A stretch of DNA of 51,962 nucleotides from Clostridia bacterium (GTDB lineage Bacteria; Bacillota; Clostridia; Oscillospirales; CAG-272): positions 1-51,962 of the forward strand of contig JAGCJI010000069.1 in the NCBI GenBank assembly GCA_017648085.1. Reading direction: 5' to 3'. Of the stretch, positions 1-39,100 are shown in pieces. The notes below the pieces were generated by a model. That model searched no databases and was not told the DNA's origin. It saw nothing but the letters and a program-made list of their open reading frames with translations. Position numbers and translations under genes: made by a program. Positions within the stretch are counted from its first letter, which is position 1, and every line of letters starts with the position of its first letter.

Positions 1-201
1 GAAGTTCGTTTTACCGTCAACTACAAGGTCGACCTTTTTCTCGGGCTCGGGAGATTTAAGCTGCTCTTTACAGCTGTCGCATATGCCGTCACCGTCATCG
101 TCCTTATGCGTGCAGGGCTTCTCGCCGCAAGCAAAGGTAAAGAGCGTCATCGACATAACGAGCAGTATGAGCAAGAGCCTTCTAAAAGCATTTTTCTTCA
201 T
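1..201 (-). CDS. Lipoprotein, N-terminal 67 codons only (the gene runs off the left edge). The N-terminus is paralogous to that of the 359..3277 product.
   Basis: The reverse complement of 1..201 reads MKKNAFRRLLLILLVMSMTLFTFACGEKPCTHKDDDGDGICDSCKEQLKSPEPEKKVDLVVDGKTNF, open to the window edge. A GAGGTGG RBS lies at 208..214, 6 nt before the ATG at 201. It has a signal peptide with a Cys lipobox-like site. The C-x-H-x-D-x-DG-x-G-x-CD-x-C motif and the following V-x-DG-x-x-NF match residues 28-68 of the 972-aa lipoprotein. It is absent from the ORF track because it has no in-window stop. Confidence 0.6.
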   Translation of the reverse strand, partial: MKKNAFRRLLLILLVMSMTLFTFACGEKPCTHKDDDGDGICDSCKEQLKSPEPEKKVDLVVDGKTNF

Positions 202-315
202 ACCTTACCACCTCAATTTACAGTATTACGATTTTATTGTAACACACGCGCGTAATACGCGCAAGCCAATTTTTTATCCTTTTGTGCATTTGTTTTGTTT
301 TTTAGTTCTATTTTG

Positions 316-351
316 ATAATAAAAGGGATGCCTTGCACGGCAAAGCATCCC
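316..351 (-). terminator. Rho-independent terminator downstream of the 359..3277 gene
   Basis: On the minus strand, GGGATGCTTTGC-CGT-GCAAGGCATCCC forms a 12-bp stem with one G.U pair and is followed by TTTTATT. It starts 8 nt after the stop codon. Confidence 0.65.
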
Positions 352-358
352 CGAAGAT

Positions 359-3277
359 TTATCTGAAAATAAAGTCACCGACGTTCTCGCCCGCCGTGCC
401 TATAACGTATTTTTTGTCGCCGTAGCAGAATTTTGTGTCGCCGAAGAAACCGCCGTAGTTTTCTACGTCATCATAGTGAGCGCCGTCACTTATTCCCTTG
501 CCCGACGTGTCGGCAACGACGAATTTATAGCCATTGGGATTGGACCGTATTTCAATAAATTCGGGAGGAAGAATAACGTTGAAATTCTCGCGGTCCGACT
601 TATTTTTGACAACACCGCCCTCGTTTGCACTGACGCGGTCCTTGTCGTATGCAATTCCGCTATCCGGAACAAGCACACCGTCCTTATACTCTCCCGTACC
701 GTCCACCACACCGTCGTAGTTCTTGTCAAGATAAGAGTATCTCGGTGGCGTTTTGGCAGTATATTCAAGATGCATCCGCACGTCGGTGAGTGCATTTGAA
801 AGCTGAAGCTCCGTGCTGCCGTATCTCTCATCATTTTCCGCATAGATTATCTCTATTCCGTCGATTATCAAATTCGGGAAGGCACATACGTATCCGAAAT
901 CCCAGTTGGTGTAAAATTGGGAAAGGATCACGAGCGGATTTTCCTTACCGTCGCGAGTATCGAAGGCTGCGTAGCATTTAACGTTTTGCAGTGTCACGGT
1001 TCCGTCCCAGGTTGAGCCGTAGTCCGATCGAAGCTTGACTATGGCATCGGGCGAGCCCGAGCCATCGGCGTAAACCACGGAATCCTTGATCAACATATCG
1101 CCTCCGCCGGTCAGCGACATCTCACCCACGTGAGAACCGATGACCGCACCGCCTACAAGACCGGCGTGAGAATCAAATCGGGACATAGTGGAATTGATAA
1201 ACTGCATATTTTTCGTATAGTTTGCTCCGCCAAGTCCCCAGAACACCGCCGTGTTTAAGGATTTGTACGCGATCGGGTTCATACTAAGCTGTGCGCCCGG
1301 CGTGCCCTCGGGAACGCCCGTAATTTCACCCGTGGCGTAATCTATAGTGATCCAGAAATTAGACTGATAGCATTCCTCGTAAAATATGTTACACGCCTCG
1401 TGTACCGAGTAGTCGTAAGTGCCTGGTGTTCCGCTACCTACGCCTTTATATTTACGGTAGCACCTTCTGCCCGTAAGAGTGCAGCGTAAAAATCTTACGT
1501 TGTTTGCGTAGTCGGCACAGAAAAAGCCGTTATACGCACTGCCAAGTATGCCAGCCTCCTGCTCGTTAAGTGAAATCTCATTTTTAACAATATGCTTAAC
1601 GTCAATAACGTTTACGTTTGAGCGCTGTACGTCGATTCCGCGGTGAATGTACCCGCCGTATACGCCTATCGCCACGCCGTTTTCGCGTATAACGTTGTCG
1701 GCCCTGCTGGCAAGGGTAGTGAATTCACCGCCCTTTATGGTGATAGGCTCTGAATCGATCTCGTATACGGCGATATTCGCGAGAAAGTTGTAGTCGAAGA
1801 ACACGGGAGTCGACGGATCAACGTTTCCGTCCTTATCAAGCACTATCATCTCGTGCATACCGTTTCCGTCAAAGGAACTGTATCCTACGCGGCGGTACAC
1901 CCTGTGAGTTCCGTTGAAGGGTCTTATCATAACCGGTCTGTCAACGCCGGTCAGCTTAATATTCGTAGTTCCGCGGCCGAGCCCCGCCGCAAGAATTCGA
2001 TTGAGCTCCTCTGTGGAATCGATCTGCCACTCCTCTTTATCCGGAAGGACGTAAAACAAGTGAAGTCTCGCCATATCAGTACCGTCAAAGGTCGAAATAT
2101 CGGTATCGTCTATTATGAATTTTGCGCCGGTCCAATCGGTATTGGTCTTTATCGTAATAAAGGTCGGCTTGCCAAACGCGTCACGGGTATCGTGAATACG
2201 GTAGACCTTGCCGGGCGTTGCCTTGACAGTTTGACCGCACTGATTTGCAAGCTCGTGCGCGCGGTAAATAGCCCAATAATCGTCGGTCATTCCATTGCCG
2301 GTAGCACCCATGTCGTCATAATATATAACGTCAACGTCGCGCTGATAAACTCTGCCGGTCAGTTGAACGACTCCGTTTTCCGCGGATATACCGGCAAGGA
2401 AAGTGTCCACCGCCGAAGCGAGCATATTATCGTATGCACATTCAATCGTGAGCTGCTCTTTGGAATTGACGTTTATCTCAAAGCCGCCCTGCACGCTGCC
2501 CTTCGGAACTTTATTTATGATTATGGATTTATCGGCATCGTCAAGCCCGACTATATCGGGATAAAAGCCCATTTTTACGTATAGGTAATCGCGTATAGCC
2601 TCTGCCGCCGCCATATACGTGGGGTTTTGCGTGTCGGTAGCAATGCTGTAGTCACGTATTGAGGACGAGCCGATCGTAAAGGATATGACGTCGTATTTCG
2701 TCTGGATCTTCACCTCATCCATCTTATCTGTAAAGACAAACTCGTCCATAATATCGCCGTCCGCATATGGAGCGGTGACGATAGAGGTGAATTTTTTGAT
2801 TGCCTCGGAAAGAGCATCGGTTGAGCCGGCGGAAATAACCACTTTTGATCCCATCATTTTGATAGCATACCCCTCAACACCTAGGGTATGCTCGTCGATA
2901 TCGTATTCAGCTCCGCGGTTTTGCACGTTGCCTATAAGTACCTCAATATTCTGGATCATTTTCTTGGCGTCTTCTTCGACGGTTTTAACCTCAACGCCAA
3001 GCTTTTTAAAGGCGAGGGTAGCCTTGTTAAGCTCGTAGGAAACTATAGAAGGCGCATCCTTTTCCAACACGAAATGGAAGTTAGCCTCGCCGTCTATGAC
3101 AAGAACCACCTCGTCCTCTGTCGACGGCGGCTTTTTTGCCATATCCTTATCGCATTTGTCGCACACGCCGTTGCCGTCGTTATCACTATGGATACAAGGC
3201 AGATTAAGGGTTAAGGAGCAGGAGGAAAGCATGATAACGGTTATTGCTACGAGTAGTGCTGCCAGAAATCTCTTCAT
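359..3277 (-). CDS. Surface lipoprotein with two N-terminal alpha/beta modules and a C-terminal ~650-aa right-handed beta-helix (pectate-lyase-superfamily / tailspike-like) module. Labelled paralog P1.
   Basis: 972-aa ORF. It has a signal peptide and lipobox (MKRFLAALLVAITVIMLSSC). Residues ~315-972 align by eye with the four upstream ~650-aa ORFs: GATGNGMTDDY, RRCYRK, WGLGGANYTKNMQFINSTMSRFDSHAGL, SDYGSTWDGT and the C-terminal GGFFGDTKF. The G-x-G(D/N)G-x-TDD start motif is typical of Pectate_lyase_3-type beta-helix proteins. The N-terminal EGYAIKM..KVVISAGS-type modules weakly resemble GH20/GH67 N-domains. Confidence 0.85.
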   Translation of the reverse strand: MKRFLAALLVAITVIMLSSCSLTLNLPCIHSDNDGNGVCDKCDKDMAKKPPSTEDEVVLVIDGEANFHFVLEKDAPSIVSYELNKATLAFKKLGVEVKTVEEDAKKMIQNIEVLIGNVQNRGAEYDIDEHTLGVEGYAIKMMGSKVVISAGSTDALSEAIKKFTSIVTAPYADGDIMDEFVFTDKMDEVKIQTKYDVISFTIGSSSIRDYSIATDTQNPTYMAAAEAIRDYLYVKMGFYPDIVGLDDADKSIIINKVPKGSVQGGFEINVNSKEQLTIECAYDNMLASAVDTFLAGISAENGVVQLTGRVYQRDVDVIYYDDMGATGNGMTDDYWAIYRAHELANQCGQTVKATPGKVYRIHDTRDAFGKPTFITIKTNTDWTGAKFIIDDTDISTFDGTDMARLHLFYVLPDKEEWQIDSTEELNRILAAGLGRGTTNIKLTGVDRPVMIRPFNGTHRVYRRVGYSSFDGNGMHEMIVLDKDGNVDPSTPVFFDYNFLANIAVYEIDSEPITIKGGEFTTLASRADNVIRENGVAIGVYGGYIHRGIDVQRSNVNVIDVKHIVKNEISLNEQEAGILGSAYNGFFCADYANNVRFLRCTLTGRRCYRKYKGVGSGTPGTYDYSVHEACNIFYEECYQSNFWITIDYATGEITGVPEGTPGAQLSMNPIAYKSLNTAVFWGLGGANYTKNMQFINSTMSRFDSHAGLVGGAVIGSHVGEMSLTGGGDMLIKDSVVYADGSGSPDAIVKLRSDYGSTWDGTVTLQNVKCYAAFDTRDGKENPLVILSQFYTNWDFGYVCAFPNLIIDGIEIIYAENDERYGSTELQLSNALTDVRMHLEYTAKTPPRYSYLDKNYDGVVDGTGEYKDGVLVPDSGIAYDKDRVSANEGGVVKNKSDRENFNVILPPEFIEIRSNPNGYKFVVADTSGKGISDGAHYDDVENYGGFFGDTKFCYGDKKYVIGTAGENVGDFIFR

Positions 3278-3337
3278 CGGTTTCCGTTCCTCCGGCGTCG
3301 GAGGTCCTTTCTTTTGTAGAGAGCATGCGCATCCGTG

Positions 3338-5281
3338 TCAAGTTTTCACAAATTCAAACGTCGCGGTGTCACTATGGTTCGTACCGAGATAGTATTCGTC
3401 AGCGCCATTACCAAAGTAGAATTTCGTGTCGCCGAAGAAGCCGCCAAGGCTATCGAGCTCATCGTAATATTTGCCGTCGCTTATACCGCTGCCCGACGTA
3501 TCGGGAACACGGAAAATATATTTATTCTCACTCTGCAATATCTTGATAAAGAGCGGCGGGCGCACGGGGTTTTCGTTCTTGTAGCTTGTGGGATGCATAA
3601 CACCGCTATTACTCGGAACTCCGTCGTAGGGAATATCTGTGCCGTCAACAAAACCGTCACCGTCAAGGTCGACCTTGGCATAAATGGGATGCGATGCGGT
3701 GGTGGTAGGCAAGTGGATCGCCGGCTCGTCCTTAAGCGTCGGGCGGGTAAGGTTTATATTATATCCGTCGGGCAGTGGCTCGCCGGTTTCCTGGTCGTAA
3801 TACGTAAGACCTTCAACCTCCACGTTCGGGAAGCAGGACTGATATCCGGGATACCAATTTATGTACCCGTGTCGAATTAAAAAGCTCGGGCGGTCGGTCA
3901 GAATATACGCCTTTACGTTTTTGACGGTTACCGTGCCGTCCCAGGGAGAGCCGTAATCCTCGCGCATTCCGAAAAGCGCGTCGCCGTACTTTATTCCCTC
4001 TCCGACCCAAGTCGAGTTTTCAATAATCATATGTCCGCCGCCGACGATTGAAATGGTGTTGTAGGTGGAGTCGATTACTTTGCCGTTATAAAGTCCGGCG
4101 TGCGCATCAAAGCGGGACATTGTGGAGCCGATAAACTCCATATTCTTGGTGTAATTTACACCGCCAAGACCCCAATACACCGCGAAATCTATGCCGCCAA
4201 AAGAGGTCTGGCGCAGGCTGTGAACGGCGCCGGGGGTGTCCTTGGTTGCCGGCTTTACCTCGCCGGTTTCCATATCTATAGTTATCCAGAAATTGGACTG
4301 ATGGCAATTTTTAAATACAAGCTTGTTGCAGTCGTCGCCTGTGTAATCGTAGGAGCCGCTGGTGCCGCTGCCTGCGCCGGGAACGTTGTTTTTGCGGAAG
4401 CATCTTTTGCCGGTAAGCACGCAGTCCTCAATAGTTACGCCGTGCGCGCCCGAAACCTCAAAAAATCCGTTATAGGTCGGGCCGAGTATGCCGGAGGCCT
4501 GCTCCGCAAGAGTTATTTCTCCCGTGACGTAATGCTTAACGTTTTTGACGGTAGTATGGGAGCGTGTGATTTTAAGTCCACGCTGAATAAAGCCGTTGCG
4601 CGCGCGAAGCACCTTGCCGCTCTCATCGCGTTCAAGTATATCTATATGGCTTGCGCGAGTGGTAAACGTTCCGTTCTGAACAGTCAGGGGGCGTACTCTC
4701 AAATCCACCACCTTGATGTAATCGATATAGTCGTAGTTGAAGAGCACGGGGGTTTCGGGATCAATATTTCCCTCTCCGTCAAGGACTATGACCTCGTGTG
4801 TAAGGCCGCCGAGATGCGAGCCGAAGCCGATTCGGCGGTAAACGCGGTTGGTCGAGGAATACGGAATGATCATGACCGGGTAGTCAACGCCCGGCAGGTT
4901 TATCCTTTTCGTATCCGGATTAAGTCCCGACTTTGCAAGGGAGTCAAGAAGCTCTCTGTCCTCTATGAGCGTCGGCTCGCTGTCAGGCAGAATATAGAAA
5001 ATATCCTTTTTTGTAACGCCGGTGCCGTCAAAATGTATGAAATTAGTGTCCTCAATTATAAAGCTTGCACCGCACCAATCAACGTCGGTTTTGATTTCGA
5101 CCGAATGGACGAGTCCCTCCCTGTCGCGCGTGTCACCTATAAGATAGGTATCCTCGGGATGTGCAACGACGGACAGACCGTTTGCGTTTGCGTATTCGTG
5201 CGTTGCCTTTATTGCAAAAAAATCATTCGTAATTCCGTCGCCGACCGCGCCGAAATCTCTGTAACTTACCGTTGTTTTCAT
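3338..5281 (-). CDS. Leaderless beta-helix (pectate-lyase-superfamily / tailspike-like) protein, paralog P2
   Basis: 647-aa ORF with a GGAGAT RBS 7 nt upstream. It starts MKTTVSYRDFGAVGDGITNDFF with no signal peptide. It shares YWGLGGVNYTKNMEFIGSTMSRFDAHAGL, EDYGSPWDGTVT, DLDGDGFVDGTD and GGFFGDTKFYFG with its paralogs. Confidence 0.9.
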   Translation of the reverse strand: MKTTVSYRDFGAVGDGITNDFFAIKATHEYANANGLSVVAHPEDTYLIGDTRDREGLVHSVEIKTDVDWCGASFIIEDTNFIHFDGTGVTKKDIFYILPDSEPTLIEDRELLDSLAKSGLNPDTKRINLPGVDYPVMIIPYSSTNRVYRRIGFGSHLGGLTHEVIVLDGEGNIDPETPVLFNYDYIDYIKVVDLRVRPLTVQNGTFTTRASHIDILERDESGKVLRARNGFIQRGLKITRSHTTVKNVKHYVTGEITLAEQASGILGPTYNGFFEVSGAHGVTIEDCVLTGKRCFRKNNVPGAGSGTSGSYDYTGDDCNKLVFKNCHQSNFWITIDMETGEVKPATKDTPGAVHSLRQTSFGGIDFAVYWGLGGVNYTKNMEFIGSTMSRFDAHAGLYNGKVIDSTYNTISIVGGGHMIIENSTWVGEGIKYGDALFGMREDYGSPWDGTVTVKNVKAYILTDRPSFLIRHGYINWYPGYQSCFPNVEVEGLTYYDQETGEPLPDGYNINLTRPTLKDEPAIHLPTTTASHPIYAKVDLDGDGFVDGTDIPYDGVPSNSGVMHPTSYKNENPVRPPLFIKILQSENKYIFRVPDTSGSGISDGKYYDELDSLGGFFGDTKFYFGNGADEYYLGTNHSDTATFEFVKT

Positions 5282-5401
5282 AGCTGAATCTCCTTTTTTT
5301 GCCCGCGAGGGCAGTTAATCTAAGTTATACAACTCAAAGTGCCGGTGCGCAAGCACCTTGTTTGCTTTTTACGTGTCCTTGTTTGAAAGATGTCCGCGGT
5401 G

Positions 5402-7342
5402 TCAGTTAAAGACGAAGGGACCGACCTCTCCGATTTCCGTGCCAACAACGTAATCTACGGCAGAATAGTAAAATTTAGTGTCGCCGAAGAAGCCGCCCGC
5501 ATTTTCAACGTCATCGTAATAGTCGCCGTCGCTTATTCCGGCACCTGCCGTAGAGGCAAGAGTAAAGCGGCATCCGCCGTCCTGAATTATCTTAATATAT
5601 TCCGGGGGGCGTACGGGATTTTCGTTTGTGTAGCTTGTCGGGTGCATAACTCCGCCGTTGCTTGGCACTCCGTCGTAAGGAATGTCGGTGCCGTCAATCA
5701 GCCCGTCGCCGTCAAAATCGACCTTTGCATAATAGGGGTGCGATGCCGTAGTGGTGGGCAAATGCATTGCCGGCTCAAAGCCCGACGAGAATCTGAAGAG
5801 TTTTATTTCGTAGCCGTCGGGTAAGGGTAGTCCGGTTTCCTGGTCGTAGTACGTAAGGTTTTCAACCACGACGTTAGGATATGCCACGGGGTATCCGAAG
5901 TACCAGTTAGTATAACCGCAACGAATCAGATAGCTCGGGCGGCTGGTGAAAATATACGCCTTCACGTTTCTGACCGTGACGGTTCCGTCCCAAGGCGAGC
6001 CGTAGTCCTCACGCATACCGAAAAGCGAGTCGCCCGATTTTATGCCCTCGCCCACCCACGTCGAGTTTTCAACGAGCATATTTCCGCCGCCGACGATGGA
6101 AATCGTGTTGTAGGTGGAGTCGATTATTTTTCCGTTATAAAGCCCCTGGTGCGCATCGAAGCGAGACATCGTAGAGCCTATAAACTCGAGATTTTTACAG
6201 TAGTTAACTCCGCCAAGACCCCAATACACCGCAAAATCTATACCGCCGTAGGTGGTTTGGCGCAAGCTGTGTATTGCACCGGGAGTGCCTTCCGGCACGG
6301 GAGTTATCTCTCCGGTTTCCATATCAAGAGTTATCCAAAAATTAGACTGATAACAGTTCTTGAAAACGATTTTGTTGGATTCGTCTGCGCGATAATCGTA
6401 AGTACCGCTTGTGCCGCTTCCCGCGCCGGGAACGTTGTTTTTGCGGTAACATCTTCTTCCCGTCAGAACACAATCAAGCATAGTGACACCGTGAGCGCGC
6501 TCAACCGCGAAAAATCCGCTGTAAGTAGGACCGAGCATACCGCGCGCCTGCTCCGCAAGCGTTATCTCGCCCGTCACGTAATGCTTTATTCCCTGCACGG
6601 TCGTGTTCGAGCGCATTATCTTAAGTCCGCGCGCAATATAGCCGTTACGGGCCCTGATGACCTTGCCCTCTCCGTCGCGCTCCAAAATATCAATATGGCT
6701 TGCGCGAGTGGTTATGTTAGCGTTTTTGACTGTTATGGCACGCTCGGCAAGGCTTATTACGGTAATATAGTCGAGGTGGTCATAATCGAACATAAGGGGC
6801 GTTTGCTGGTCAACGTTTCCATCCTTGTCTATAACCACTACCTCGCGTGTCACTCCGCCGAGGAAGTGCGAGGAAAAGCCGATGCGGCGGTAAACTCCGC
6901 CCCCCTTCGTGTTATAAGGAATTATCATAGCGGGATAATCAACCCCGGGGATTGCTATTCTTTCGGTTTTGGAATTCAATCCCTTGAGAACTATATCCGA
7001 AAGCACGCCCTCGTCCTCAATTTTGATAGGCTCTTTGTCGGGCAGGATTTTAAAAACGTTCTCCAAGGCGACACGGGTACCGTCGAAATGGATAAAATCA
7101 GTGTCGTCTATGATTATATTTGCGCCTTGCCAATCGACGTCGGTCTTTATTGATATAAAATTAAGAGAGCCGTCCTCGCTGCGCGTGTCGTGCACAAGAT
7201 AGGTGTCCTCGGAATCGGCTACGACGGAAAGTCCATACGCATTTGCATAGTCATGCGCCGCCTTCATTGCAAAGAAGTCGTTGGTGACTCCGTCACCCTT
7301 CGCACCAAAATCCCTATAGCTGACAGTTTTCCGTGTTTGCAT
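5402..7342 (-). CDS. Leaderless beta-helix protein, paralog P3
   Basis: The ORF is open from 7360, but a GGGAGA RBS sits 7 nt before the second ATG (7342). That start gives MQTRKTVSYRDFGAKGDGVTNDFF, collinear with P2. By eye it is high (roughly 70%) aa identity to P2 over the full length. Confidence 0.9.
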   Translation of the reverse strand: MQTRKTVSYRDFGAKGDGVTNDFFAMKAAHDYANAYGLSVVADSEDTYLVHDTRSEDGSLNFISIKTDVDWQGANIIIDDTDFIHFDGTRVALENVFKILPDKEPIKIEDEGVLSDIVLKGLNSKTERIAIPGVDYPAMIIPYNTKGGGVYRRIGFSSHFLGGVTREVVVIDKDGNVDQQTPLMFDYDHLDYITVISLAERAITVKNANITTRASHIDILERDGEGKVIRARNGYIARGLKIMRSNTTVQGIKHYVTGEITLAEQARGMLGPTYSGFFAVERAHGVTMLDCVLTGRRCYRKNNVPGAGSGTSGTYDYRADESNKIVFKNCYQSNFWITLDMETGEITPVPEGTPGAIHSLRQTTYGGIDFAVYWGLGGVNYCKNLEFIGSTMSRFDAHQGLYNGKIIDSTYNTISIVGGGNMLVENSTWVGEGIKSGDSLFGMREDYGSPWDGTVTVRNVKAYIFTSRPSYLIRCGYTNWYFGYPVAYPNVVVENLTYYDQETGLPLPDGYEIKLFRFSSGFEPAMHLPTTTASHPYYAKVDFDGDGLIDGTDIPYDGVPSNGGVMHPTSYTNENPVRPPEYIKIIQDGGCRFTLASTAGAGISDGDYYDDVENAGGFFGDTKFYYSAVDYVVGTEIGEVGPFVFN

Positions 7343-7371
7343 TATATAATCTCCCACCATGCTTTTACATC

Positions 7372-7400
7372 ACTATACCGCCCGACGCGGTAAAAGTCAA
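7372..7400 (-). promoter_or_regulatory. Sigma-70-type promoter for paralog P3
   Basis: The minus strand reads TTGACT, a 17-nt spacer, then TATAGT. It lies ~30 nt upstream of the P3 start, in the P4-P3 intergenic region. Confidence 0.55.
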
Positions 7401-7449
7401 TGCAGAACCCGACTTTATCCTTAAAACGCCAAATTTCAAGGATAATGTG

Positions 7450-9387
7450 TTATATAAATTTAAATATTTCGGTATCGGTATGGTCGGTGCCGAGGTAATA
7501 GTCATCCTCGCCATCGCCATAGTAAAATTTAGTTCCGCCGAAGAAACCGCCGAAATTATCCGCAGCGTTATAATATCCGCCGTCGCTGACTCCGCATCCC
7601 GCAGTTTTAGGAACGGCAAAAGCGAAGCCCGCACCGTTGCCGCATATCTTAACGTATTCGGGTGGCTTAACGGGGTTAAGATTCTCATTGCTGCCCTCGT
7701 AAATTATACCCGTGCTGTCGGGAATACCGTCGTACAGTATATCCGTTCCGTCAACGAAACCGTCGCCATCCGCGTCGATCTTTGCAAAAATCGGGTGGCT
7801 GTTCTTCGTTTCGGGAAGGTGAAGCGCAGGCTCAAGAAGCATAGACTCTCCGGTGAGATAAATGACGTGACCGCGCGGCAACGGCTCACCCGTTTTGAAA
7901 TCGTATACAGTGAGCGAGTCGACCTCTATATTCGGGAAGCAGGACTGATATCCGCAATACCAGTTGAGATATCCGTGACCCGCAAGACGGCAGGGCTTTT
8001 CGGGGTTAACGTAGGCCTTCACGTTCTTCAGTGTGATCCTTCCATCCCAAGGAGATCCGTAGTCGGAGCGCATACCAAGCAGCGTGTCGCCCTTGTTGTG
8101 ATCAAGTCCCATAAGAGTAGAATTTTCAATAACCATATCGCCACCGCCCACGAGTGATACCGTGTTTACGGTGGAATTGATAATTTTTCCGTTCATAAGT
8201 CCTGCGTGAGCGTCAAAGCGAGAAAGGGTTGAGTCTATGAACTGCATATTTTTGGTGTAATTTGCTCCGCCAAGTCCCCAATATATCTTGAAGTTGATAT
8301 TGCCGAACGCAGTTGCCGTCATGCTTAACTGTGCCCCGGGCGTGTCCGCGGTCGCAGGCTTTATCTCTCCGGTTTCCATATCTATCGTTATCCAGAAATT
8401 AGACTGGTGGCAGTTTTTAAATATTACGAGGTTGGAATCGTTAACGGTGTAATCGTACGAGCCGCTCGTTCCGCGTCCCGCCCCGGGAACGTTGTTTTTG
8501 CGAAAGCATCTTTTTGCGGTCAGAATGCAATCCTGAAATGTGACTGCATGTGCGCCCGTTGCTCCGAAAAATCCGTTATAGGTCGGTCCGAGCATACCCT
8601 TTGCCTGCTCTGCAAGAGTAACCTCCCCCGTCACGTAATGCTTTACGTTTTTTACGGTCGTAAAGGAACGCATAACTTCAATACCGCGCTGTATGTAGCC
8701 GTTGCGAGAACGGATCGCGTTTCCCTCCGCATCCCTCTCCACTATGTCAAAGTGGCTGGCGCGTGTGGTAAAGGTCGCGTTTTCGAGCGTAATATGCGGC
8801 TCGTCAAGGCGAGTAAGCTTTACCGAGTCGAGAGCCGAATATTTAAACAGAAAGTGCGTGTCGTCCGACACGTAGCCATCCTTATCCAGCACGACGACCT
8901 CGTGCGTTACACCGCCCACGTGTGAGCCGAAGCCACGGCGGCGGTAAACTCTGTTGGAGGAATCGTAGGGCGTCATCATAACCGGATAGTCAACGCCGGG
9001 GATAACTACCCTCTCTGTTGAACGGTCAAAGCCCGAGCCGAGAATCTCTGCAAGGACGTCCTCATCGTCAACCGTTACGGGCTCGGTGTCGGGCAAAACT
9101 ATAAACAGGTCCTGTGCCGTGACACCCGTGCCGTCGAAATGCATGAAATTCGTATCGTCAATTATAAAGCTTGCGCCACGCCAATCAACGTCGGTTTTAA
9201 CCTCTACGTAATGAACGTTGCCCTCCGCATCTCGCGTATCGGATATAAGATAGGTATCCTCGGGATGCGCGATAACCGAGCATCCGTTCTGATTGGCATA
9301 TTCGTGCGCCGCCTTTATTGCAAAAAAGTCGTTCGTGATGCCATCGCCAACCACACCGAAATCCCTATAGCTTACAGTTTTTTTCAT
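7450..9387 (-). CDS. Leaderless beta-helix protein, paralog P4
   Basis: The ORF-track start at 9402 is a GTG. The ATG at 9387 gives MKKTVSYRDFGVVGDGITNDFF, collinear with P2 and P3 (AAGGTG lies upstream). The same conserved motifs are present: YWGLGGANYTKNMQFIDSTLSRFDAHAGL, DADGDGFVDGTD and GGFFGGTKFYYG. Confidence 0.88.
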   Translation of the reverse strand: MKKTVSYRDFGVVGDGITNDFFAIKAAHEYANQNGCSVIAHPEDTYLISDTRDAEGNVHYVEVKTDVDWRGASFIIDDTNFMHFDGTGVTAQDLFIVLPDTEPVTVDDEDVLAEILGSGFDRSTERVVIPGVDYPVMMTPYDSSNRVYRRRGFGSHVGGVTHEVVVLDKDGYVSDDTHFLFKYSALDSVKLTRLDEPHITLENATFTTRASHFDIVERDAEGNAIRSRNGYIQRGIEVMRSFTTVKNVKHYVTGEVTLAEQAKGMLGPTYNGFFGATGAHAVTFQDCILTAKRCFRKNNVPGAGRGTSGSYDYTVNDSNLVIFKNCHQSNFWITIDMETGEIKPATADTPGAQLSMTATAFGNINFKIYWGLGGANYTKNMQFIDSTLSRFDAHAGLMNGKIINSTVNTVSLVGGGDMVIENSTLMGLDHNKGDTLLGMRSDYGSPWDGRITLKNVKAYVNPEKPCRLAGHGYLNWYCGYQSCFPNIEVDSLTVYDFKTGEPLPRGHVIYLTGESMLLEPALHLPETKNSHPIFAKIDADGDGFVDGTDILYDGIPDSTGIIYEGSNENLNPVKPPEYVKICGNGAGFAFAVPKTAGCGVSDGGYYNAADNFGGFFGGTKFYYGDGEDDYYLGTDHTDTEIFKFI

Positions 9388-9427
9388 AATCGAAAATTTC
9401 ACCTTTGTTCTTTATATGGTATACCAC

Positions 9428-9455
9428 ATTATATCACTCACGTTTTTTCACACAA
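9428..9455 (-). promoter_or_regulatory. Sigma-70-type promoter for paralog P4
   Basis: The minus strand reads TTGTGT, a 16-nt spacer, then TATAAT, in the P5-P4 intergenic region. Confidence 0.45.
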
Positions 9456-9519
9456 GCACTCCGTTTACTTTTATTGAGTCCTTATTTGTATCTATCTCGA
9501 CTCCTCGGCTTTTTCGAAA

Positions 9520-11484
9520 TTATTCCGAATCTGCGCTTTTAATATCGCACTCCCGGAACTTAAACGCGCAGGTGTCCTTATGACCCGTGCCGAGATAATA
9601 ATCATCCTCGCCGTTACCGTAATAGAATTTCGTGTCGCCGAAGAAGCCACCGTCAGGCGTGAGTGCCGAGGTATCCCATACAACAACGTCAAAGTTGCAG
9701 TTTGCAAATCTTACCTTCTTCGGAGGAGTGATTCTGTTGATGTTTTTTCTGGAATCCGGAATACATACGCCCGCGGTTTCCACCACGTCGTCGTAATGAA
9801 CGTTCGTTCCGTCAACGAATCCGTCGCCATCGTAGTCAACGTCGCAGTAGTAGGGGGGAGAATACAGGGTATTTTCGAGGTGAATTCCGGGCTCGCTGAC
9901 CATCACGGACGTAGTGAGAGGCACTTCATGTCCGGGGTTTATAAGCTCACGGGTGTTCATATCGTAAAGCGTCATACCGTCAACGTCGATATCAGGGAAA
10001 GAAATACGGTATCCGTAGTCCCAGTTCGCATATCCGATTGACATGAATTTTGAGGGAGCATATTCGCGGTATGCGGGGGCGTTCGGAGAGGTTGACTTAT
10101 CTGTATATACGTACGCCTTGAAGTTTTTAAAGGTAATTCTGCCGTTCCATACCGAGCCGTAATCTCCGCGCAAGCCGAATATATTGTTCTGCTTATAATG
10201 GTTTTCGCTGTAAACGGTGGTGTTTTCAATATGCATATCTCCTCCGCCCGTAAGTGCAATAGCCACGAGCGTAGAGTCTATGATCTTACCGTTATAAAGT
10301 CCGTTGTGCGCGTCAAAACGAGAGAGCGTGCAACCGATATATTCCATGTTCTTACAAAGGTTAGAGCCACCGATGCCCCAGAACATTCTCGCCGATTTAC
10401 CCTCGTCGTTACATATGGGTGAAAGCGAAAGAACCGCATCGGGATCGGTGGGATTCGCGTCAACGATAACGCCATCCCTTATAGCGACCCAGAAGTTGTG
10501 CTGGGTACAGTTCTTAAACACGAGCTTGTTGACCTCCCAGCCCGAAAGGTCGTACGTGCCGGTAGCACCTCCGCGACCAACGGGTGACCAGGTCTTGTGG
10601 TAGCATCTTCTTGCCGACATCACGCAATCCTCAAAGGTAACGTAGCTTGCCTGCTTTGCGGAGAAGAAGCCGTGATATGCTGCGCCAACCTCACCCGCCT
10701 TCTGACGTGCGTAGGATATTTCGCCCTCAACGTAATGCTCCACGCCGCGCACGGTGGTATGGGAGCGCTTTACGTAAAGGTTACGCTCGAAGTAGTGTTG
10801 CTTTGCGGCGGTAGCTCTGCCGTTTTCATCAAACACCACACAGTTTATATCGCTTGCGATAGTGGTAAAGCGGCCACCCTCGATAAGCAGGGGCTCGTCG
10901 TCAAAGCGGTAAACCTCGATAAAATCAAGTCCGGGATATTCAAACATAAGCGGAGTTTCCTCGCTGATATTTCCCTCACCGTCAATAACCATAATCTCAC
11001 GCATCGCCGTGCCCTCGTGCTTATTGTAGCCGCGGCGGCGGTATATCTTATGGTTGTTGTTATATGGAACGATAAGCGCGGAGTATCCGAGCTTAAGATC
11101 TATCTTTCTGGTTTCCGGACCGAAGCCCTTTGCGATTATGCCCGAAAGCAATTCGGGATCGGTTACCTTACTTGGCTCGTAATAGGACTGAACACTGAAA
11201 ATACTTACTCCGTAAACCTCACCGTCGGTATGAACCGAAAGCTGCGAGTCATCTATAACGAAGCTTGCACCGCGCCAATCGGTGTTGGTTTTTATAACCG
11301 CGGGGCGTACCGCGCCGTTAACGTGCGTGTCGCTTATGTAATATGTTTTGCCCGCTTCGGCTTTGACGGGGAGATGGTTTTCATTAGCGTAATCGTGCGT
11401 CGCACAGATTGCCGCAAAGTCGTTGGTTTTTCCGTCGCCAACCGCTCCAAACTGCTCGTAGGTTACAAATTTAGTGTTTTTCAT
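9520..11484 (-). CDS. Leaderless beta-helix protein, paralog P5 (the most diverged of the leaderless set)
   Basis: 654-aa ORF starting MKNTKFVTYEQFGAVGDGKTNDF with no signal peptide. A GGAG RBS is present. It keeps FWGIGGSNLCKNMEYIGCTLSRFDAHNGL, GDYGSVWNGRIT, DYDGDGFVDGTN and GGFFGDTKFYYG. Confidence 0.9.
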   Translation of the reverse strand: MKNTKFVTYEQFGAVGDGKTNDFAAICATHDYANENHLPVKAEAGKTYYISDTHVNGAVRPAVIKTNTDWRGASFVIDDSQLSVHTDGEVYGVSIFSVQSYYEPSKVTDPELLSGIIAKGFGPETRKIDLKLGYSALIVPYNNNHKIYRRRGYNKHEGTAMREIMVIDGEGNISEETPLMFEYPGLDFIEVYRFDDEPLLIEGGRFTTIASDINCVVFDENGRATAAKQHYFERNLYVKRSHTTVRGVEHYVEGEISYARQKAGEVGAAYHGFFSAKQASYVTFEDCVMSARRCYHKTWSPVGRGGATGTYDLSGWEVNKLVFKNCTQHNFWVAIRDGVIVDANPTDPDAVLSLSPICNDEGKSARMFWGIGGSNLCKNMEYIGCTLSRFDAHNGLYNGKIIDSTLVAIALTGGGDMHIENTTVYSENHYKQNNIFGLRGDYGSVWNGRITFKNFKAYVYTDKSTSPNAPAYREYAPSKFMSIGYANWDYGYRISFPDIDVDGMTLYDMNTRELINPGHEVPLTTSVMVSEPGIHLENTLYSPPYYCDVDYDGDGFVDGTNVHYDDVVETAGVCIPDSRKNINRITPPKKVRFANCNFDVVVWDTSALTPDGGFFGDTKFYYGNGEDDYYLGTGHKDTCAFKFRECDIKSADSE

Positions 11485-11563: not shown

Positions 11564-11600
11564 TAAAAAAATGCACGAGCGCGGATATGCGCTCGTGCAT
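11564..11600 (-). terminator. Rho-independent terminator of the infB operon
   Basis: On the minus strand, ATGCACGAGCGC-ATATCC-GCGCTCGTGCAT forms a 12-bp perfect stem followed by TTTTTTT. It lies ~60 nt after the infB stop. Confidence 0.8.
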
Positions 11601-11661: not shown

Positions 11662-14559
11662 TTATCTCTTTACCTCTTCCATGATGAATGCTTCGAGTAT
11701 ATCGCCTTCCTTGATGTCGTTGAACTTGTCAAGACCGATACCGCACTCGTATCCGTCGTTTACCTCGCGCACGTCATCCTTGAAGCGACGGAGAGAGGAG
11801 ATTTTGTCCTCAAATATAACGATACCGTCACGGACAATACGGATTTCGGACTGACGGGTGATCTTACCGTCACGGACGTACGAGCCTGCGATAGTTCCGA
11901 CGTTCGGAACTCTGATGGTCTGACGAACCTCGGCGTGACCGAGCACCACCTCTTTATAGGTGGGAGCAAGCATTCCCTTCATAGCCGCCTCAACCTCATC
12001 GATTATCTCATAAATGATACGGTGAGTACGGATATCTACGCCGTTTCTCTCTGCTGAATCGATAGCGTTCTTGTCGGGGCGTACGCTGAAGCCTACGATG
12101 ATGGCGTTAGACGCCGCTGCAAGCATAACGTCGCTTTCGGTGATACCGCCGACCGCGCTGTGAATAACGGAAACCTTTACCTCGTCGCAGGAAAGCTTGA
12201 TAAGCGATGCCTTAACAGCCTCTGCCGAACCCGCAACGTCAGCCTTAACGATAACGTTGAGAGTCTTAACGCCGTCTGCGATCTGATTAAACAGATCGTC
12301 AAGGTTAACACGCGCGTTTGCGGCAAGGATTTCCTGACGCATCTTTTCGCGGCGCTGCTCGGCAAGGCTTCTTGCCATTCTCTCGTCCTCAACTGCGTTA
12401 AGCTCGTCGCCCGCCTGCGGAACGTCGTCAAGACCTACTATCTCAACGGGAGTGGACGGACCTGCAACCTTGGTTGCTCTGCCCTTGTCGTCTATCATTG
12501 CGCGAACGCGTCCGACCGCGTTTCCAACGATTACGTAGTCACCCTGATGGAGTGTACCGTTCTGAACGAGGACGGTGGCAACGGGGCCTCTGCCTCGGTC
12601 AAGCTTGGATTCTATAACAAGACCTTTTGCACGGCGGTTGGGGTTAGCCTTAAGCTCCTTAACCTCCGCAACGAGAAGAACGTTTTCAAGAAGGTCCTCG
12701 ATGCCCACTCCGGTAAGTGCGGATACGGGAACGCATATAACGTCGCCTCCCCACGCCTCGGGAACAAGCTCGTACTGCGTAAGCTGATTCAAAACGTTAT
12801 CGGGATTAGCCTGTGGCTTATCCATCTTGTTGATTGCTACTATGATGTCAATACCTGCAGCCTTGGCGTGATTGATCGCCTCGATGGTCTGTGGCATAAC
12901 GCCGTCGTCTGCCGCAACGACGAGGATCGCAATATCGGTGGACTTTGCACCGCGCATACGCATTGCGGTAAACGCCTCGTGGCCGGGGGTATCAAGAAAT
13001 GTGATGTCTTTGCCGTTAGATTTGACACGGTATGCACCTATTGCCTGTGTAATACCGCCTGCCTCGCCCTTGGTGACGTTGGTGTGACGGATGGCGTCAA
13101 GGATCGAGGTCTTACCGTGGTCAACGTGTCCCATAACGCAAACTACGGGTGCGCGAAGTGTGAGATCCTCGTCCTTATCCTCCGCCTCGGTGAAGAGCTT
13201 TTCTTCAATCGTGACGACGACCTCCTTGGTGACCTTCGCACCGAAATCGTCAGCAATGAGCTCTGCGGTAGCGTAATCGACGACGTCGTTTACACCCTTC
13301 ATCTCGCCCATAAACATAAGCTTTTTAATGACCTCTGCCGCGCTCTTTTTAAGGCGGGTTGCAAGCTCACCGATGGTAATTTCGTCGGGCACGGTGATCT
13401 CAAGCTGCTTGTTTCTTGCTCTTTCAGCCTCAAGGCGCTTGATCTTCTCCTGCGCCGCGCGCTCCTTGTCCTTCGCACTCTTTGCATTCTGACCGCGGTT
13501 ATCCTGCTTTTTAAGCTTCTGCTTCTGCGCCTTTGAATCAGTACCGTTCGCAATAGCGTAGAACTGCTCGTTGTAACGCTCGTCATACTTTGAGAGGTTG
13601 ACGTCGGAGGTTCTCATATCTACGACACGGGTCTTGGGTGCTTCTGCCTTGTAGTCGGAATTTATGTTTACTCCGCCCTTGACGTTTGACATATCGATAG
13701 TGGGAGTAATTTTCTTGAATTGCTGCTTCTGCGCGCGTTTTTCTTCCTTCTTCGGCTGCTGTGCCTTGGGAGCCGGAGCTGCCGCCGCCTTATTCTGCTT
13801 ATCAAGCTGTGCCTGCTGTGCGGGGCGAAGGGTGTTTACGCCAGTCTTGATCTCGCTCAACGGCTTCTGCACGGGTGCTGCCTTCACCTCGGTTTTTACG
13901 GGTGCTGCACTCGGACGCGCACCGGGTTGACCCATCGGGCGCTTGCTGTCGGCATTGCGATTCATATTTTCACGGCGCTTTGCAAACGGATCGTCCTGCG
14001 GGCGCTCGGAATATTTCTGATAAGTAGAGCGGGGCTGAGATTTCGGAGCGTAATAGGTCGCGCTATTCTGACGCTGCGAGTCGTTAGCCCTCGTCTGCCC
14101 GTCGGGTCTACGGGAATCAAACGGTCTTTGTTGCCTTTCGATGCGTTGCTGCGCCGCAGGCTTTTGCTGCACATTTTCTCTTGCGTTATCATTTTTTTGT
14201 GACACGGGGGTTGCCTTAACCTCTGTCTGAGGCTTGGGTTCAGCTTTTTGTGCGGGTGTACCCTCCGCCTTCGGAGCGGCTTTCGCCTCTCCCTTTGTGT
14301 CTGCATTAGCCACCGGCTTTGCCTCCGCCGTAGGCTTTGAAGCTTTAGGTGCGGATATGGTTATCTCCCCTTTTGTATACGCCTCCAGATTCTTTATCTG
14401 GTGGGATGCGGTGAGATGGCAGAGGAATATCTCAAACTCCTCATCCTCCACTGTCGCGCCGCTTTTCTTGTCATATCCTATCGCCTTAAACGTATCGATT
14501 ACGTCCTTTTGCTTAATATCAAAATCCTTGGATATCTGCGTTATTTTCATTTGAGCCAT
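11662..14559 (-). CDS. infB: Translation initiation factor IF-2
   Basis: 965 aa. G-domain motifs [17 protein letters not shown] and NKMD are present. There is a long low-complexity K/A/P/Q-rich N-terminal region, and the gene sits in the canonical position after nusA-ylxR-ylxQ. Confidence 0.97.
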
Positions 14560-20441: not shown

Positions 20442-21287
20442 TCATCTGAAGCCGTAAAGCGCAGTTCCTATTACCGTTGCATATTCTGCAGACTCGGGAA
20501 TAAGGAAGTTCGCCCCGTACATCTCCTTCATACGGTTAAAAAAGTCAAATTTTTCGCGACAGTATGCCAGGCGTGTCAAATTTCCGGTTAAAACTATATC
20601 GCTTACACCCACGCTTCGCGCGGCAAATATTGAAACCATACCGACGGTTTCAAGAACCATATTCATAATACCGAGAGCAAAGTCGGGCTTGTCAGCCACG
20701 TCGGACACGTTACCGAAGTTTGCCGCCGTCAATTCCCCCGCTAAAATTCCGTGTGAGCTGCCTGCGGTAATATCCTTTATGCGCAGGTCCACGTTTGCGA
20801 TATTGCCTGCCGAGGCAAAATCCTCGATATGCTCTATGCTCTCTGCCGAAAGCAGAAGCTTCGAAAGTCCCATCAGCGTGCCGCCGCCGACACCCGTACC
20901 GCCAAGATAATTCATCTCGCCGTTTGCCGATGCATGCACAAGTGCCGTACCCGTGCCCATACTGACCACGAGCGCGCTGTTAAATCCGGATATATAAAGT
21001 CCGCCAAGTCCTATAGCGTTGAACTCCGGTACGTGTAGGCACTCCAACCCGTAAAGGTCGCGCTTGACGTAGGACGAGCCGACACCGGTCATCATTATTT
21101 TGTCTATGTCTTTGATAGAAAGCCTGTTTTCGTCGGTAAATTTTCCAAACGCGCCGTAGGTGGCGGTTATCGGATCGTTAGCGCGCACGAGCTGCGGCTG
21201 TATCAGTTCTCTTTTTTCACCGTCGGTACGAAAGCCGACTATTTTCGTCGTGCTTCCGCCAACGTCAATTCCTATGACTACGCTCAT
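20442..21287 (-). CDS. coaW: Type II pantothenate kinase (CoaW-like, ASKHA fold)
   Basis: 281 aa. IGIDVGGSTTKIV, GTGTA, GGTGVGGGTLMGLSKLL and GELTAANFG closely parallel staphylococcal CoaW motifs (GIDAGGTLIKIV, GTGTS, GGIGTGGGMIQGLGYLL, GDLTAANFG). Confidence 0.75.
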   Translation of the reverse strand: MSVVIGIDVGGSTTKIVGFRTDGEKRELIQPQLVRANDPITATYGAFGKFTDENRLSIKDIDKIMMTGVGSSYVKRDLYGLECLHVPEFNAIGLGGLYISGFNSALVVSMGTGTALVHASANGEMNYLGGTGVGGGTLMGLSKLLLSAESIEHIEDFASAGNIANVDLRIKDITAGSSHGILAGELTAANFGNVSDVADKPDFALGIMNMVLETVGMVSIFAARSVGVSDIVLTGNLTRLAYCREKFDFFNRMKEMYGANFLIPESAEYATVIGTALYGFR

Positions 21288-27454: not shown

Positions 27455-27468
27455 GAAAGGAAAAAGAT

Positions 27469-28067: not shown

Positions 28068-28087
28068 GAAAGGAAAAACAATAACTA

Positions 28088-28504: not shown

Positions 28505-28525
28505 TAATTTGAAAGGAAGGAAATC

Positions 28526-30474: not shown

Positions 30475-30476
30475 CT

Positions 30477-36162: not shown

Positions 36163-39100
36163 ATGAAAAAAGTAACGAAAATTTTGTTGCTTCTGCTCGT
36201 TGCTACCTTGATTTGCGCCGGTGCCGGACTTTATGCGTTCTCGGCAACCGCAAATTCAAGCATTACGGGCAAGGCGGCTGATTCCTCCTATGCCTTCAAG
36301 GTCTTTAAGCCTTCCACGGCAAACGGAACGACTGGATCGACGAACAAGTACACGGCAAACAGCCTATCAACGCTGAAAAACGCACTTAATAGCGGTATCG
36401 ACGGTACGGTAATTACGCTTTTAAGTGACGTTACGATAACCACCGATAAGGATGCGGCGTTAAACGTTTCAGGCGTAAAATACATAGACCTTAACGGTTA
36501 TTCCATAACCTTTATTGCCAAGCCGAGCGTACAGTCTGCAACGGGCTACGGATTTATGCTTAACCCGAATTCCACTCTCTACGTATATTCATCCGATGCG
36601 AGCTACACGGCTCAAATCAGAACCTACGTTGACGGAACTGTCTACGTGGCAAACGGAAGCACGCCCATGGACGACTATAAAAACCACGTAATGCCCATAT
36701 TTAATATGCGCTACGATAACAGCACTCTGTATTTCGGAACAATCGACAATGCGCCTGTGTCAAATTCTGCAGGTACTGCCGTGTCCAGACGCGCAGTAAG
36801 CGGCGACAATATCGTTACGTATGCTAACGCTCTTTTTTCCTCCCTTAAGGCGTCTTACAAGGCTAACCCCGTAGGCTCGAAGGCTTACATACGCGGAGGT
36901 ACGCACTACCAGACCGCGATAGGACACGAGCGTGTGGGCGGCGACGGCAGCAGCTTTATTACCTCATATACGGGAGTAGACATCATCCTTGAGGATGCTA
37001 CGTTTATATCGACTGTATCCAGCGGACTTATTTCCACGTGCGTAAGACTTGCCACCTCGACCGTGGATAACACGACTAACTACATTGCTCCCGCGGACGG
37101 AAATATCACCGCAAACCGTTGCAAATTTTACTCCGAGGGAACGATTATAGCACAGGCGTACGAGAGCGTACACACCGATAACACGTATCCCGGCGGCATC
37201 AAGCTCTCCTCTATTGAATTTAACAACTGTTATTTTGCAGGAACAGCTCTCAGTAACGACGCAAGCAACGGCTCTCCCGATTTCAACAACTGTTATTTTG
37301 CTTCGGCGGCAACGATCCCCGGCTCTTCCAACAAGACGGTATCCACCAACAAATCCTACACCTTTAACGTACCGACTGCAACATACACCTATGCTGCGGA
37401 CGGATCGGTCACGTTTTCCCTCTCCGCTGCAAAATCCGTGCCCGCGAATTTCTTCGTAAAGACAGCCACAGAGGGCAACTATGCAACGATAACCTGGAAC
37501 GGCTACGGAAAAACGGAGGTAACATATTGGGATAACGACAGATCGGTAGTCCCCACCCCCGCATTTGTTCCCGAATCCTCAGGTCTTTATAAGTATCAGT
37601 ACACCACGACCATCAAAGCGGTTACGGGTGATGCGACTTATAATCTTGAGCCTACCATAAACTTTCCGTTTATGACCAACCTCACGCTGTACGCGCACTT
37701 CGTATACAACGTATATATCCCCAAGGATATTGCCGATTCCCCTGAATTCATATCGGTTTTCCTTGACGGCAAAGCACAGGAGCTTAAAAATGTCGTTACC
37801 GTTTCGGGCGAAAAGTACTATGTGCTCTCACACGAGCTTCCCGCAAGCGTAGCGGATCAGAGCTTCGATCTCACTATGCGTATTGAGGGATATGAGGAAA
37901 CCTTTGACTATACGAAGGCTCTGTCGATCCCCGACTACGTATCTGCAGTAACGAACGGCAACTATTCGGCGGAGGCAAAGGCACTTGTAAGCTCCGCTGA
38001 CACTTATATAAAAGCGGCGCGCAATTACTATACCGACTCCTCGCTTTACGCGGTCCCCGAGCTTGAGAAAATAGTGGGTAAGCCCGCGTCGCAGATTCCC
38101 GCAGCCCTTTCCGATACTCTTTACGGAGTAACGCTGGAGCTTGGCGGAACTATAAAATTCAGACTCTTTATCTATAAAAATGCCCCTGATTTCACTTTCA
38201 GCTATCAGATCAACAACGTCCGCAAGGAATTTAGCTCAAGCGAAGTCACTATGACTGAAATTCCCGATTCTGACCTCTGCTACTTTGATATATCGGTTTC
38301 CGCGTTTGACCTGCGCGATACTGTAAGAATAATTTCAAGCGACGGAACGGTATACTACTACTCACTTGCAAACTATATCTACTCCGTACAAGGCGAATCC
38401 TCGCACCTTACGACTCTTATGGACGCTATTTGGGAATACTCCGTCTGCAGTGAAGAGTACGCAAGCGTATTTAACTCTCAGTCACCCACCATACAGGTTA
38501 CCATCTCCGGTTCGGAAATCGATGCTATCGTAGCAACCAACGCGGCGGAAATGAAGGCGGCAGAGATAATTCAGAACGCTCTTGCAGAGGTCACGGGTAT
38601 TACAGTACCGATCACAAGCACGGCAACCTCCGGTGCTAACGTAATAGTAACCGTCACCGCTCCGGTTGCGGCATACGACGCAAAGGCGTACGTAAAGAGT
38701 GGCGACCTGTACATAGAATGCGGATATGCATCCTTTACCTACAGTGCGGCAAGTCAGTTTGTAAACAACTACATAATTCGACTCGGCTCGTCCTACAACT
38801 TTGCCACCAGATTTACCACAAGCTTCTACACGGATGAGATCTACTACTCCGACTTCGGTGCGGTAGGCGACGGCGTTACCGACGACTTCTTCGCTATGAA
38901 GGCGGCGCACGATATGGCAAACGCAACAAAGCGTCACACGGTACGCGCCGACAGCGGAAAAACCTATCTTATAGAGGACACCCGCGATCCTTCCGGCAAG
39001 GTGCATCAAATCTCCATCACCTCAAACGTTAATTGGGGTAATGCAAACATCATAATTAAGGACACAAACTTCTCCGCCTTTGACGGAACCGGCGTAACCG

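Follow-up and report, generated by a model that had tools for sequence, protein, structure and literature searches.

Diverged tandem paralogs of an unannotated beta-helix family downstream of infB in a ruminant-gut Clostridia genome: probable relatives of phage tail-fiber and tailspike depolymerases

Organization of the locus

The stretch of DNA analyzed here (the window) is the 51,962 nucleotide (nt) contig JAGCJI010000069.1 of assembly GCA_017648085.1, a ruminant-gut Clostridia metagenome-assembled genome (Oscillospirales, CAG-272; locus tags J6V09), and our subject is a head-to-tail array of paralogous genes, here called A to F, which follows infB on the minus strand and encodes a beta-helix module of about 650 amino acids (aa). 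The minus-strand order is rimP, nusA, ylxR, an L7Ae-family gene, infB, and then the array; a further copy of the module lies within a giant protein encoded on the plus strand. The features of the array, in the direction of transcription, and the giant gene are as follows:

11662..14559, minus strand: infB (IF-2), the conserved anchor of the locus, with rimP, nusA, ylxR, and the L7Ae-family gene upstream
11571..11600, minus strand: strong terminator-like hairpin of the intrinsic type (12 pairs and a T run), 3′ of infB
11563-11535, minus strand: promoter-like site between the infB hairpin and gene A
9520..11484, minus strand: gene A, 654 aa, module only, no signal peptide, GGAG Shine-Dalgarno sequence upstream; motifs GAVGDGKTND at 11419-11448, GTYDL at 10546-10560, SRFDAHNGL at 10297-10323, and RGDYGSVWNG at 10141-10170
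7450..9402, minus strand: gene B, 650 aa from a GTG start, no signal peptide; candidate catalytic residues Y316 (motif at 8449-8463), H399 (8197-8223), and R445 (8041-8070)
7400-7372, minus strand: promoter-like site TTGACT-17-TATAGT, upstream of gene C
5402..7360, minus strand: gene C, 652 aa, no signal peptide, 70% identical to gene D
3338..5281, minus strand: gene D, 647 aa, no signal peptide, AGGAG Shine-Dalgarno sequence
359..3277, minus strand: gene E, 972 aa lipoprotein, module from residue 315
324..352, minus strand: strong terminator-like hairpin of the intrinsic type (13 pairs and a T run), 3′ of gene E
1..201, minus strand: gene F, cut by the window edge, first 67 codons only
36163..41406, plus strand: giant protein gene, 1747 aa, secreted, module at residues 889-1570 (window 38827-40872)

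The likelier start of gene B is the ATG at 9387, which yields 645 aa and matches the database entry; that of gene C is at 7342, which yields 646 aa and has a GGGAG Shine-Dalgarno sequence in front. Every array gene has a Shine-Dalgarno sequence, and several have promoter-like sites of their own. No inverted repeats flank the intergenic promoters, and we therefore rejected invertible promoters or phase variation. RNA gene scans found neither tRNA genes nor Rfam matches in the window. An earlier reading made from the letters and open reading frames (ORFs) of the window, without database searches (the sequence-only reading), had compared gene F with a lipoprotein called P1; that lipoprotein is the 972-aa product of 359-3277 (gene E), which is the final complete gene of the array and not the neighbor of infB.

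The copies are old and maintained

Protein alignment shows a collinear stretch of about 650 aa in all five complete array genes and in the giant (residues 889-1570), and the six modules proposed by the sequence-only reading are thus confirmed by ORF coordinates, by alignment, and by a hidden Markov model (HMM) of the family, which all six proteins match with E values of 1e-213 to 1e-273; chance similarity is therefore excluded. Protein identity among the module copies ranges from 39 to 70%, with values of 39-46% against the 972-aa protein and of up to 70% between neighbors. At the DNA level the array copies are direct repeats with a period of 2049-2100 nt and 60-85% identity, and the longest exact nucleotide strings common to copies are 14-26 nt. 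A 25-mer quoted earlier as being present in two genes occurs in three: exactly at 6422, with 1 mismatch at 4373, and with 2 mismatches at 8479.

The number of synonymous substitutions per site (dS) exceeds 1.7 in every pair and is saturated, and the ratio of nonsynonymous to synonymous rates (dN/dS) is 0.12-0.26; the copies are therefore old, maintained paralogs, as had been supposed, and by these sequence measures they are ancient and evolve under purifying selection. Exact strings of at most 26 nt, the lack of high-identity or conversion tracts, and the saturated dS rule out recent amplification or gene conversion. Gene A is the most basal of the copies in the window, and in a neighbor-joining tree that includes the relatives described below, paralogs group mostly by genome.

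Several sequence blocks listed earlier as invariant are not strictly so: GDG and DGDG are replaced by GNG and NYDG in the 972-aa gene, and the block given as RRC is (R/K)RC. The motif GGFFG(D/G)TKF is, as described, present in the five array genes and missing from the giant. It belongs to a C-terminal region of about 150 aa in the long forms (7525-7770 in gene B, and equivalents) that also contains a DxDGDGxVD loop of EF-hand or dockerin-like appearance; this region is missing from 550-aa forms of the family and from its Bacteroidota homologs, and is partial in the giant.

The array beyond the window edge and in relatives

The array does not end with the window. The 67 residues of gene F match the start of P0013, a family member of 978 aa, without a difference, and scaffold L086 of another assembly, whose overlap with the edge of the window is 422 nt long and has 1 mismatch, holds gene D, gene E, and a complete gene F encoding a 978-aa lipoprotein form with the module. 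The sequence-only reading had left the module content of the gene at 1-201 open; the gene does carry the module. In L086 the gene F stop codon is followed by a hairpin and then by the start of a seventh gene (MKKNAF...), and the array thus comprises at least seven copies. The promoter, ribosome-binding site, and first codons of gene F are repeated almost exactly at the seventh gene, with 1 C/T difference in about 62 nt (L086 8545-8620 and window 202-270). The contigs of three of four samples end within gene F, two of them at window position 1, and the fourth breaks inside the array; the ends at gene F are likely due to this repeated promoter and 5′ region of the lipoprotein genes.

Three samples yielded the same five genes in the same arrangement, and the first two of these genes are also present on a contig from a fourth sample (XIEF21 assemblies), so that the array is stable in this population. 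Both copy number and content vary among relatives: i) one relative, with 91% identity in IF-2, has at this position after infB a 1221-aa lipoprotein and three different family copies, followed by ogg (the 1221-aa lipoprotein of this relative, L002, was considered as a family member and rejected as unrelated to the family); ii) another relative carries 11 or more copies, followed by the same ogg-DUF6062-AAA flank; iii) arrays of 3 to at least 11 copies are common in related Clostridia, including at the infB site, and other Clostridia have 4-5 copies elsewhere in the genome; and iv) Bacteroidota have single copies. Because the copies differ between relatives at the same site, we regard the locus as a conserved hot spot at which tandem duplication and loss take place separately in each lineage. 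It is not an insertion confined to one strain, nor is it a fixed core operon; the suggestion of an accessory insertion after infB holds insofar as the content of the locus is variable, but not as a description of one strain.

In relatives the leaderless copies are interspersed with leaderless GH36, DUF4838, and GH106 genes (glycoside hydrolase, GH), and adjoin AraC-type regulators and a fucose isomerase gene; DUF4838 is a GH20-associated domain of unknown function. A Fibrella homolog is a secreted single copy among GH9, GH97, GH8, and esterase genes. These surroundings would agree with surface enzymes that degrade polymers and cytoplasmic ones that complete the breakdown of imported fragments.

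The module as a family, and its fold

Scans with Pfam and NCBIfam found no curated model above cut-off for any of the six proteins. A match to PF12708 reaches only 13-14.5 bits (cut-off 27) and is limited to the N-terminal cap, and a match to NF049898 reaches 13 bits (cut-off 500). The family is large: a profile search of 1.84 billion cluster representatives yielded 2,414 clusters at 50% identity with E≤1e-3, 920 of them with E≤1e-30. Three architectures recur, namely module-only leaderless proteins of about 550-650 aa, lipoproteins of about 950-1,000 aa, and secreted giants of 1,400-1,700 aa.

An AlphaFold model of the gene B protein (predicted local distance difference test score, pLDDT, 92.5; predicted template modeling score, pTM, 0.93) is a right-handed beta-helix followed by the C-terminal domain of about 150 aa, and all top Foldseek matches are beta-helix proteins. 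Both by profile and by fold, the top match in the Protein Data Bank (PDB) is 8X8M, the Klebsiella phage capsule depolymerase K64-ORF41, with E 4.2e-8 in a PDB-wide profile search and, for the gene B model, Foldseek E 1.6e-13 and a query template modeling score (TMq) of 0.52; the model of the 972-aa protein has the same top match. Further tailspike lyases in the fold list (LKA1 gp49, AP22 gp54, and K1 lyase) are interleaved with GH110 hydrolases at much lower TM-scores. A profile-profile alignment of the family with K64-ORF41 (hhalign) gives E 2.5e-5 and a probability of 75% over 136 columns. The K1 lyase was not detected by sequence with the family HMM.

The phage connection is not confined to structure. 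PHROG tail-fiber families 23059 and 16586 match with E 1e-19 and 5e-15, and tail fibers of SPO1-like Bacillus phages match by sequence over residues 4-465 at about 22% identity. The CampHawk tail fiber scores 181 bits against the family HMM over the whole helix (residues 125-541), and is also the best match among predicted viral structures (TMq 0.63). The SPO1-like fibers (CampHawk gp97, SPO1 gp17.2) resemble the module in the GDG cap, the Tyr, the WGxGG and RxDYGSTWEG blocks, and in homology along the whole helix; they differ from the array proteins in about 120 extra N-terminal and about 480 extra C-terminal residues. We found no enzymology for SPO1-like tail fibers in the literature searched. 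In the CampHawk fiber (locus 2138-5215) the Tyr, WGxGG, and RQDYGSTWEG are kept, and NGLDIRFH stands in place of SRFDAH with its His two positions off; this shift reflects either local misalignment or a different active-site arrangement.

The AlphaFold model, Foldseek searches of the PDB and BFVD, and the PHROG tail-fiber matches all bear out the earlier assignment of the module to the pectate-lyase-like, tailspike type of right-handed beta-helix. We consider homology to tail-fiber and tailspike depolymerases, together with the beta-helix fold, to be very probable, and place the module as a new cellular branch of this group that has expanded in tandem arrays of rumen Clostridia. The right-handed beta-helix is shared with K64-ORF41 (phage SH-KP152410, 8X8M), the K1 lyase (NTUH-K2044-K1-1, 7W1C/7W1D), and AP22 gp54. 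Unlike K64-type lyases, the window genes are bacterial chromosomal genes without an N-terminal particle-binding domain; their products are leaderless, or carry a lipoprotein signal and GH20b-like domains; and the module has the extra C-terminal domain with the DxDGDG loop and GGFFGDTKF.

A candidate lyase active site

K64-ORF41 and the K1 lyase degrade capsules that contain glucuronic acid by metal-independent beta-elimination, with a Tyr as the base, a His as the acid, and an Arg that neutralizes the carboxylate, as structures and mutagenesis have established for the K1 enzyme (PMC8822698). The corresponding residues have been tabulated as Tyr528/His574/Arg628 in K64-ORF41 and Tyr311/His373/Arg397 in the K1 lyase (PMC11652154); for K64-ORF41 we checked a 20-residue tag offset in the numbering against the native sequence.

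Two of the three residues have aligned counterparts in the family: H399 of SRFD(A/S)H aligns with the catalytic His574, and R445, the Arg preceding DYGS, aligns with Arg628, in both HMMER (profile-sequence) and hhalign (profile-profile) alignments. The K1 lyase carries the same D-x-H motif (GFDTH373). H399 and R445, as well as Y316 of the invariant GxYD motif, do not vary among 54 Clostridia members or in homologs from Bacteroidota that are about 30% identical. Because the His and Arg align with His574 and Arg628 and the residues are invariant, the SRFD(A/S)H block is most likely a lyase active site, and the sequence-only reading of this block as an unexplained signature no longer holds. Other basic residues are also invariant (R155, R239, R245, K384, and R395), and these extra Arg and Lys residues would suit an acidic substrate.

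The third residue is placed less directly. After removal of a lineage-specific insertion, Y316 lies two helix rungs upstream, and an ungapped Y-x11-F-x-N match pairing Tyr528 with Y316 ranks second of 991 offsets and is the best collinear one, within the range of shuffled sequences. It is plausible that Y316 is the counterpart of Tyr528.

Export signals and accessory domains

In four of the five complete array genes the ORF begins at the helix cap and has no room for a signal peptide; all eleven copies in a relative, L003, are also leaderless. By a simple heuristic based on hydrophobicity and motifs, about 89 of 258 family proteins examined are leaderless, module-only forms. The 972-aa and 978-aa proteins have lipoboxes (LSSC in gene E). 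In gene E the lipobox is followed by a Cys- and Asp-rich motif, DxDGxGxCDxC, and then by two alpha/beta domains with a GH20b-like fold (approximately residues 56-171 and 180-300). Across the lipoprotein forms, those of genes E and F included, C-x-H-x-D-x-D-G-x-G-x-C-D-x-C is nearly invariant just after the lipobox, and looks like a small metal- or calcium-binding knot. The GH20b-like reading of the N-terminal domains rests on a model with pLDDT 87 and on weak PF02838 matches in 7 of 42 members; the full 972-aa model adds fold matches to GH20, GH84, and GH115 enzymes.

The giant protein has a signal peptide followed by about 650 aa (window 36163-38100) without detectable relatives in the PDB or Pfam, and PDB sequence searches returned nothing useful for either its N-terminal part or that of the 972-aa protein. 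Giant residues 655-867 are weakly similar to the N-terminal domains of gene E (local alignment score 68), and the C-terminus carries two repeats of about 90 aa of a type seen in bacterial surface proteins. This architecture, in which proteins of 1,400-1,700 aa have the module at about residues 900-1,500, is widespread in the family.

Interpretation and alternatives

We propose, with a probability of roughly 55%, that the array consists of diverged paralogs of a large unannotated beta-helix family of carbohydrate-active proteins with Tyr/His/Arg lyase chemistry and a division of labor between cell surface and cytoplasm. Specifically, i) the family shares ancestry with phage tail-fiber and tailspike depolymerases; ii) its members may catalyze metal-independent beta-elimination of a uronic-acid-containing glycan, as in the K64-ORF41 and K1 lyases; iii) Y316 (GxYD) would serve as base, H399 (SRFDxH) as acid, and R445 (R-DYGS) would neutralize the carboxylate; iv) each paralog may recognize a different glycan; v) the lipoprotein and giant secreted forms would attack polymers at the cell surface, aided by their N-terminal GH20b-like domains; vi) the leaderless forms would process imported oligosaccharides in the cytoplasm; and vii) the arrays would have arisen as tandem duplications recurred in separate lineages at a recombination-prone site downstream of infB, after which the copies diverged for a long time under purifying selection.

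Such an arrangement would have partial precedents. Expanded paralog families of carbohydrate-active enzymes (CAZymes) are found in gut bacteria, as are cytoplasmic oligouronide lyases such as those of polysaccharide lyase (PL) families PL15, PL17, and PL22. The oligouronide lyases are likewise leaderless and act on imported oligosaccharides, and the expanded families show lineage-specific growth in glycan-degrading paralogs, but the folds differ from that of the module, and head-to-tail arrays of up to at least 11 copies next to infB without transporters are not the usual organization.

Several observations weigh against the lyase proposal. Identity to K64-ORF41 is just 12-13%, and the hhalign match has the limited probability and extent given above; the Tyr528-Y316 pairing lies outside all HMM alignments, and a forced glocal alignment did not reach Tyr528; the closest phage relative, CampHawk, lacks the family His in register; an Asp stands next to each candidate residue (D317, D397, and D447), and GH110 galactosidases are second-best by fold; no transporter genes were seen beside the arrays examined; and five to eleven cytoplasmic lyases in a row would be unusual for oligosaccharide catabolism.

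Because an Asp accompanies each of Y316, H399, and R445, a hydrolase mechanism is conceivable, and the module could be a beta-helix glycoside hydrolase (of the GH28, GH110, or tailspike endoglycosidase type) that uses conserved Asp residues, the array of diversified glycan-degrading paralogs being otherwise the same. D317, D397, and D447 are invariant and share the three rungs of the Tyr, His, and Arg; GH110 alpha-galactosidases come second in both fold searches, in which GH28 enzymes also appear; and the neighbors of the leaderless copies in relatives include hydrolase genes (GH36, GH106, and DUF4838). GH110 alpha-1,3-galactosidases and GH28 polygalacturonases are, moreover, carbohydrate-degrading cellular enzymes of gut bacteria with the same fold class. 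We nonetheless consider a hydrolase unlikely: the GH110 and GH28 fold matches have TMq values of 0.2-0.3 compared with 0.52 for the K64 lyase, no Pfam or NCBIfam match to either family was found even at E 0.1, the catalytic residues differ, and the one significant sequence-level match that spans the conserved blocks is to a lyase, whose catalytic His and Arg are aligned.

In a second alternative, the leaderless arrays might be a diversified set of domesticated phage-type depolymerases with which rumen Clostridia attack capsules or exopolysaccharides made by other microbes, in order to forage or to compete. The enzymes would be released by a non-classical route (lysis or a phage-like particle) and would not act in the cytoplasm, with each paralog matched to one polysaccharide as phage depolymerases are matched to capsule types. 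We give this variant somewhat less credence than a hydrolase, and regard it as doubtful.

A third possibility is that the genes encode phage-derived receptor-binding proteins that still serve a phage or phage-like particle, the array being a store of alternative tail spikes. One candidate source of such a particle is a cluster of phage-like head genes (23.2-35.9 kb) that directly precedes the giant gene:

23227-35864, plus strand: phage-like head-gene cluster, flanked by the giant gene on one side and a MutS-domain gene on the other
23227-23586, plus strand: small terminase
23576-24940, plus strand: large terminase
24937-26745, plus strand: P22/SU10-type portal
28526-29581, plus strand: weak major-head-protein match
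29638-30474, plus strand: SU10-type adaptor
30465-33182, plus strand: 905-aa BspA-LRR protein

The cluster also contains five small ORFs without matches; no integrase, lysis, replication, or recognizable tail genes were seen in it, and it could be a prophage remnant or a gene-transfer-agent-like element. The position of the giant copy directly after terminase, portal, and adaptor genes, the PHROG tail-fiber matches, and the whole-helix homology to SPO1-like fibers would favor a phage role, and phage proteins likewise lack signal peptides. Against this, the leaderless genes, because they begin at the helix cap, lack an N-terminal virion-attachment domain; the remaining copies have lipoprotein or signal peptides, unlike virion proteins; in several genomes the array is bounded by infB and housekeeping genes and no phage genes adjoin it; the Bacteroidota homologs are single and secreted, one of them in a CAZyme cluster; and giant-type architectures recur widely in the family. 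Because the array copies lack a virion-attachment domain, and the giant has a signal peptide and a recurrent architecture, a present-day virion role is very unlikely.

Least probable of all is that the module has no catalytic role and serves as a beta-helix adhesin or surface-binding protein, in the manner of pneumococcal PfbA, with the array providing surface variation: PfbA is among the fold matches of both models, and the copies include lipoproteins and large surface proteins that have repeat domains, but an export signal is missing from all but one of the five complete array genes and from all eleven in L003, polar residues at the lyase catalytic positions are invariant down to 30% identity, and dN/dS values of 0.12-0.26 are accompanied by no sign of diversifying selection or invertible promoters.

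Other features of the window

Just upstream of rimP is a 955-aa ORF (17081-19948, minus strand) extremely rich in Glu, Arg, Lys, and Ala, with a coiled-coil-like sequence and a single C-terminal hydrophobic anchor; it has no Pfam or PHROG match, and the region 17081-19948 has the highest G+C fraction (0.55) and the strongest AT skew of the window. Two minus-strand genes adjoin the phage-like cluster: 20442-21287 has Pfam matches to Fumble (pantothenate kinase) and BadF/BcrAD ATPase, and 21284-22903, which overlaps its neighbor by 4 nt, encodes a 539-aa protein whose sole match is MutS domain V.

Implications

If the lyase assignment is true, the module would represent a large enzyme family (about 2,400 clusters) of gut and rumen Clostridia and Bacteroidota that has no Pfam or NCBIfam model, and would be a ready candidate for a new polysaccharide lyase family, because its active site can be guessed from the phage depolymerases. 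It would also be a clear case of one enzyme module common to phage tail fibers and bacterial glycan catabolism. We wish to stress that the value of such an assignment would be practical, in enzyme discovery and in better annotation of "hypothetical" rumen genes, rather than in any new biological principle. For the organisms themselves, diverged copies at a conserved infB site, with content that differs between close relatives, would point to many distinct, as yet unknown acidic glycan substrates in the rumen.

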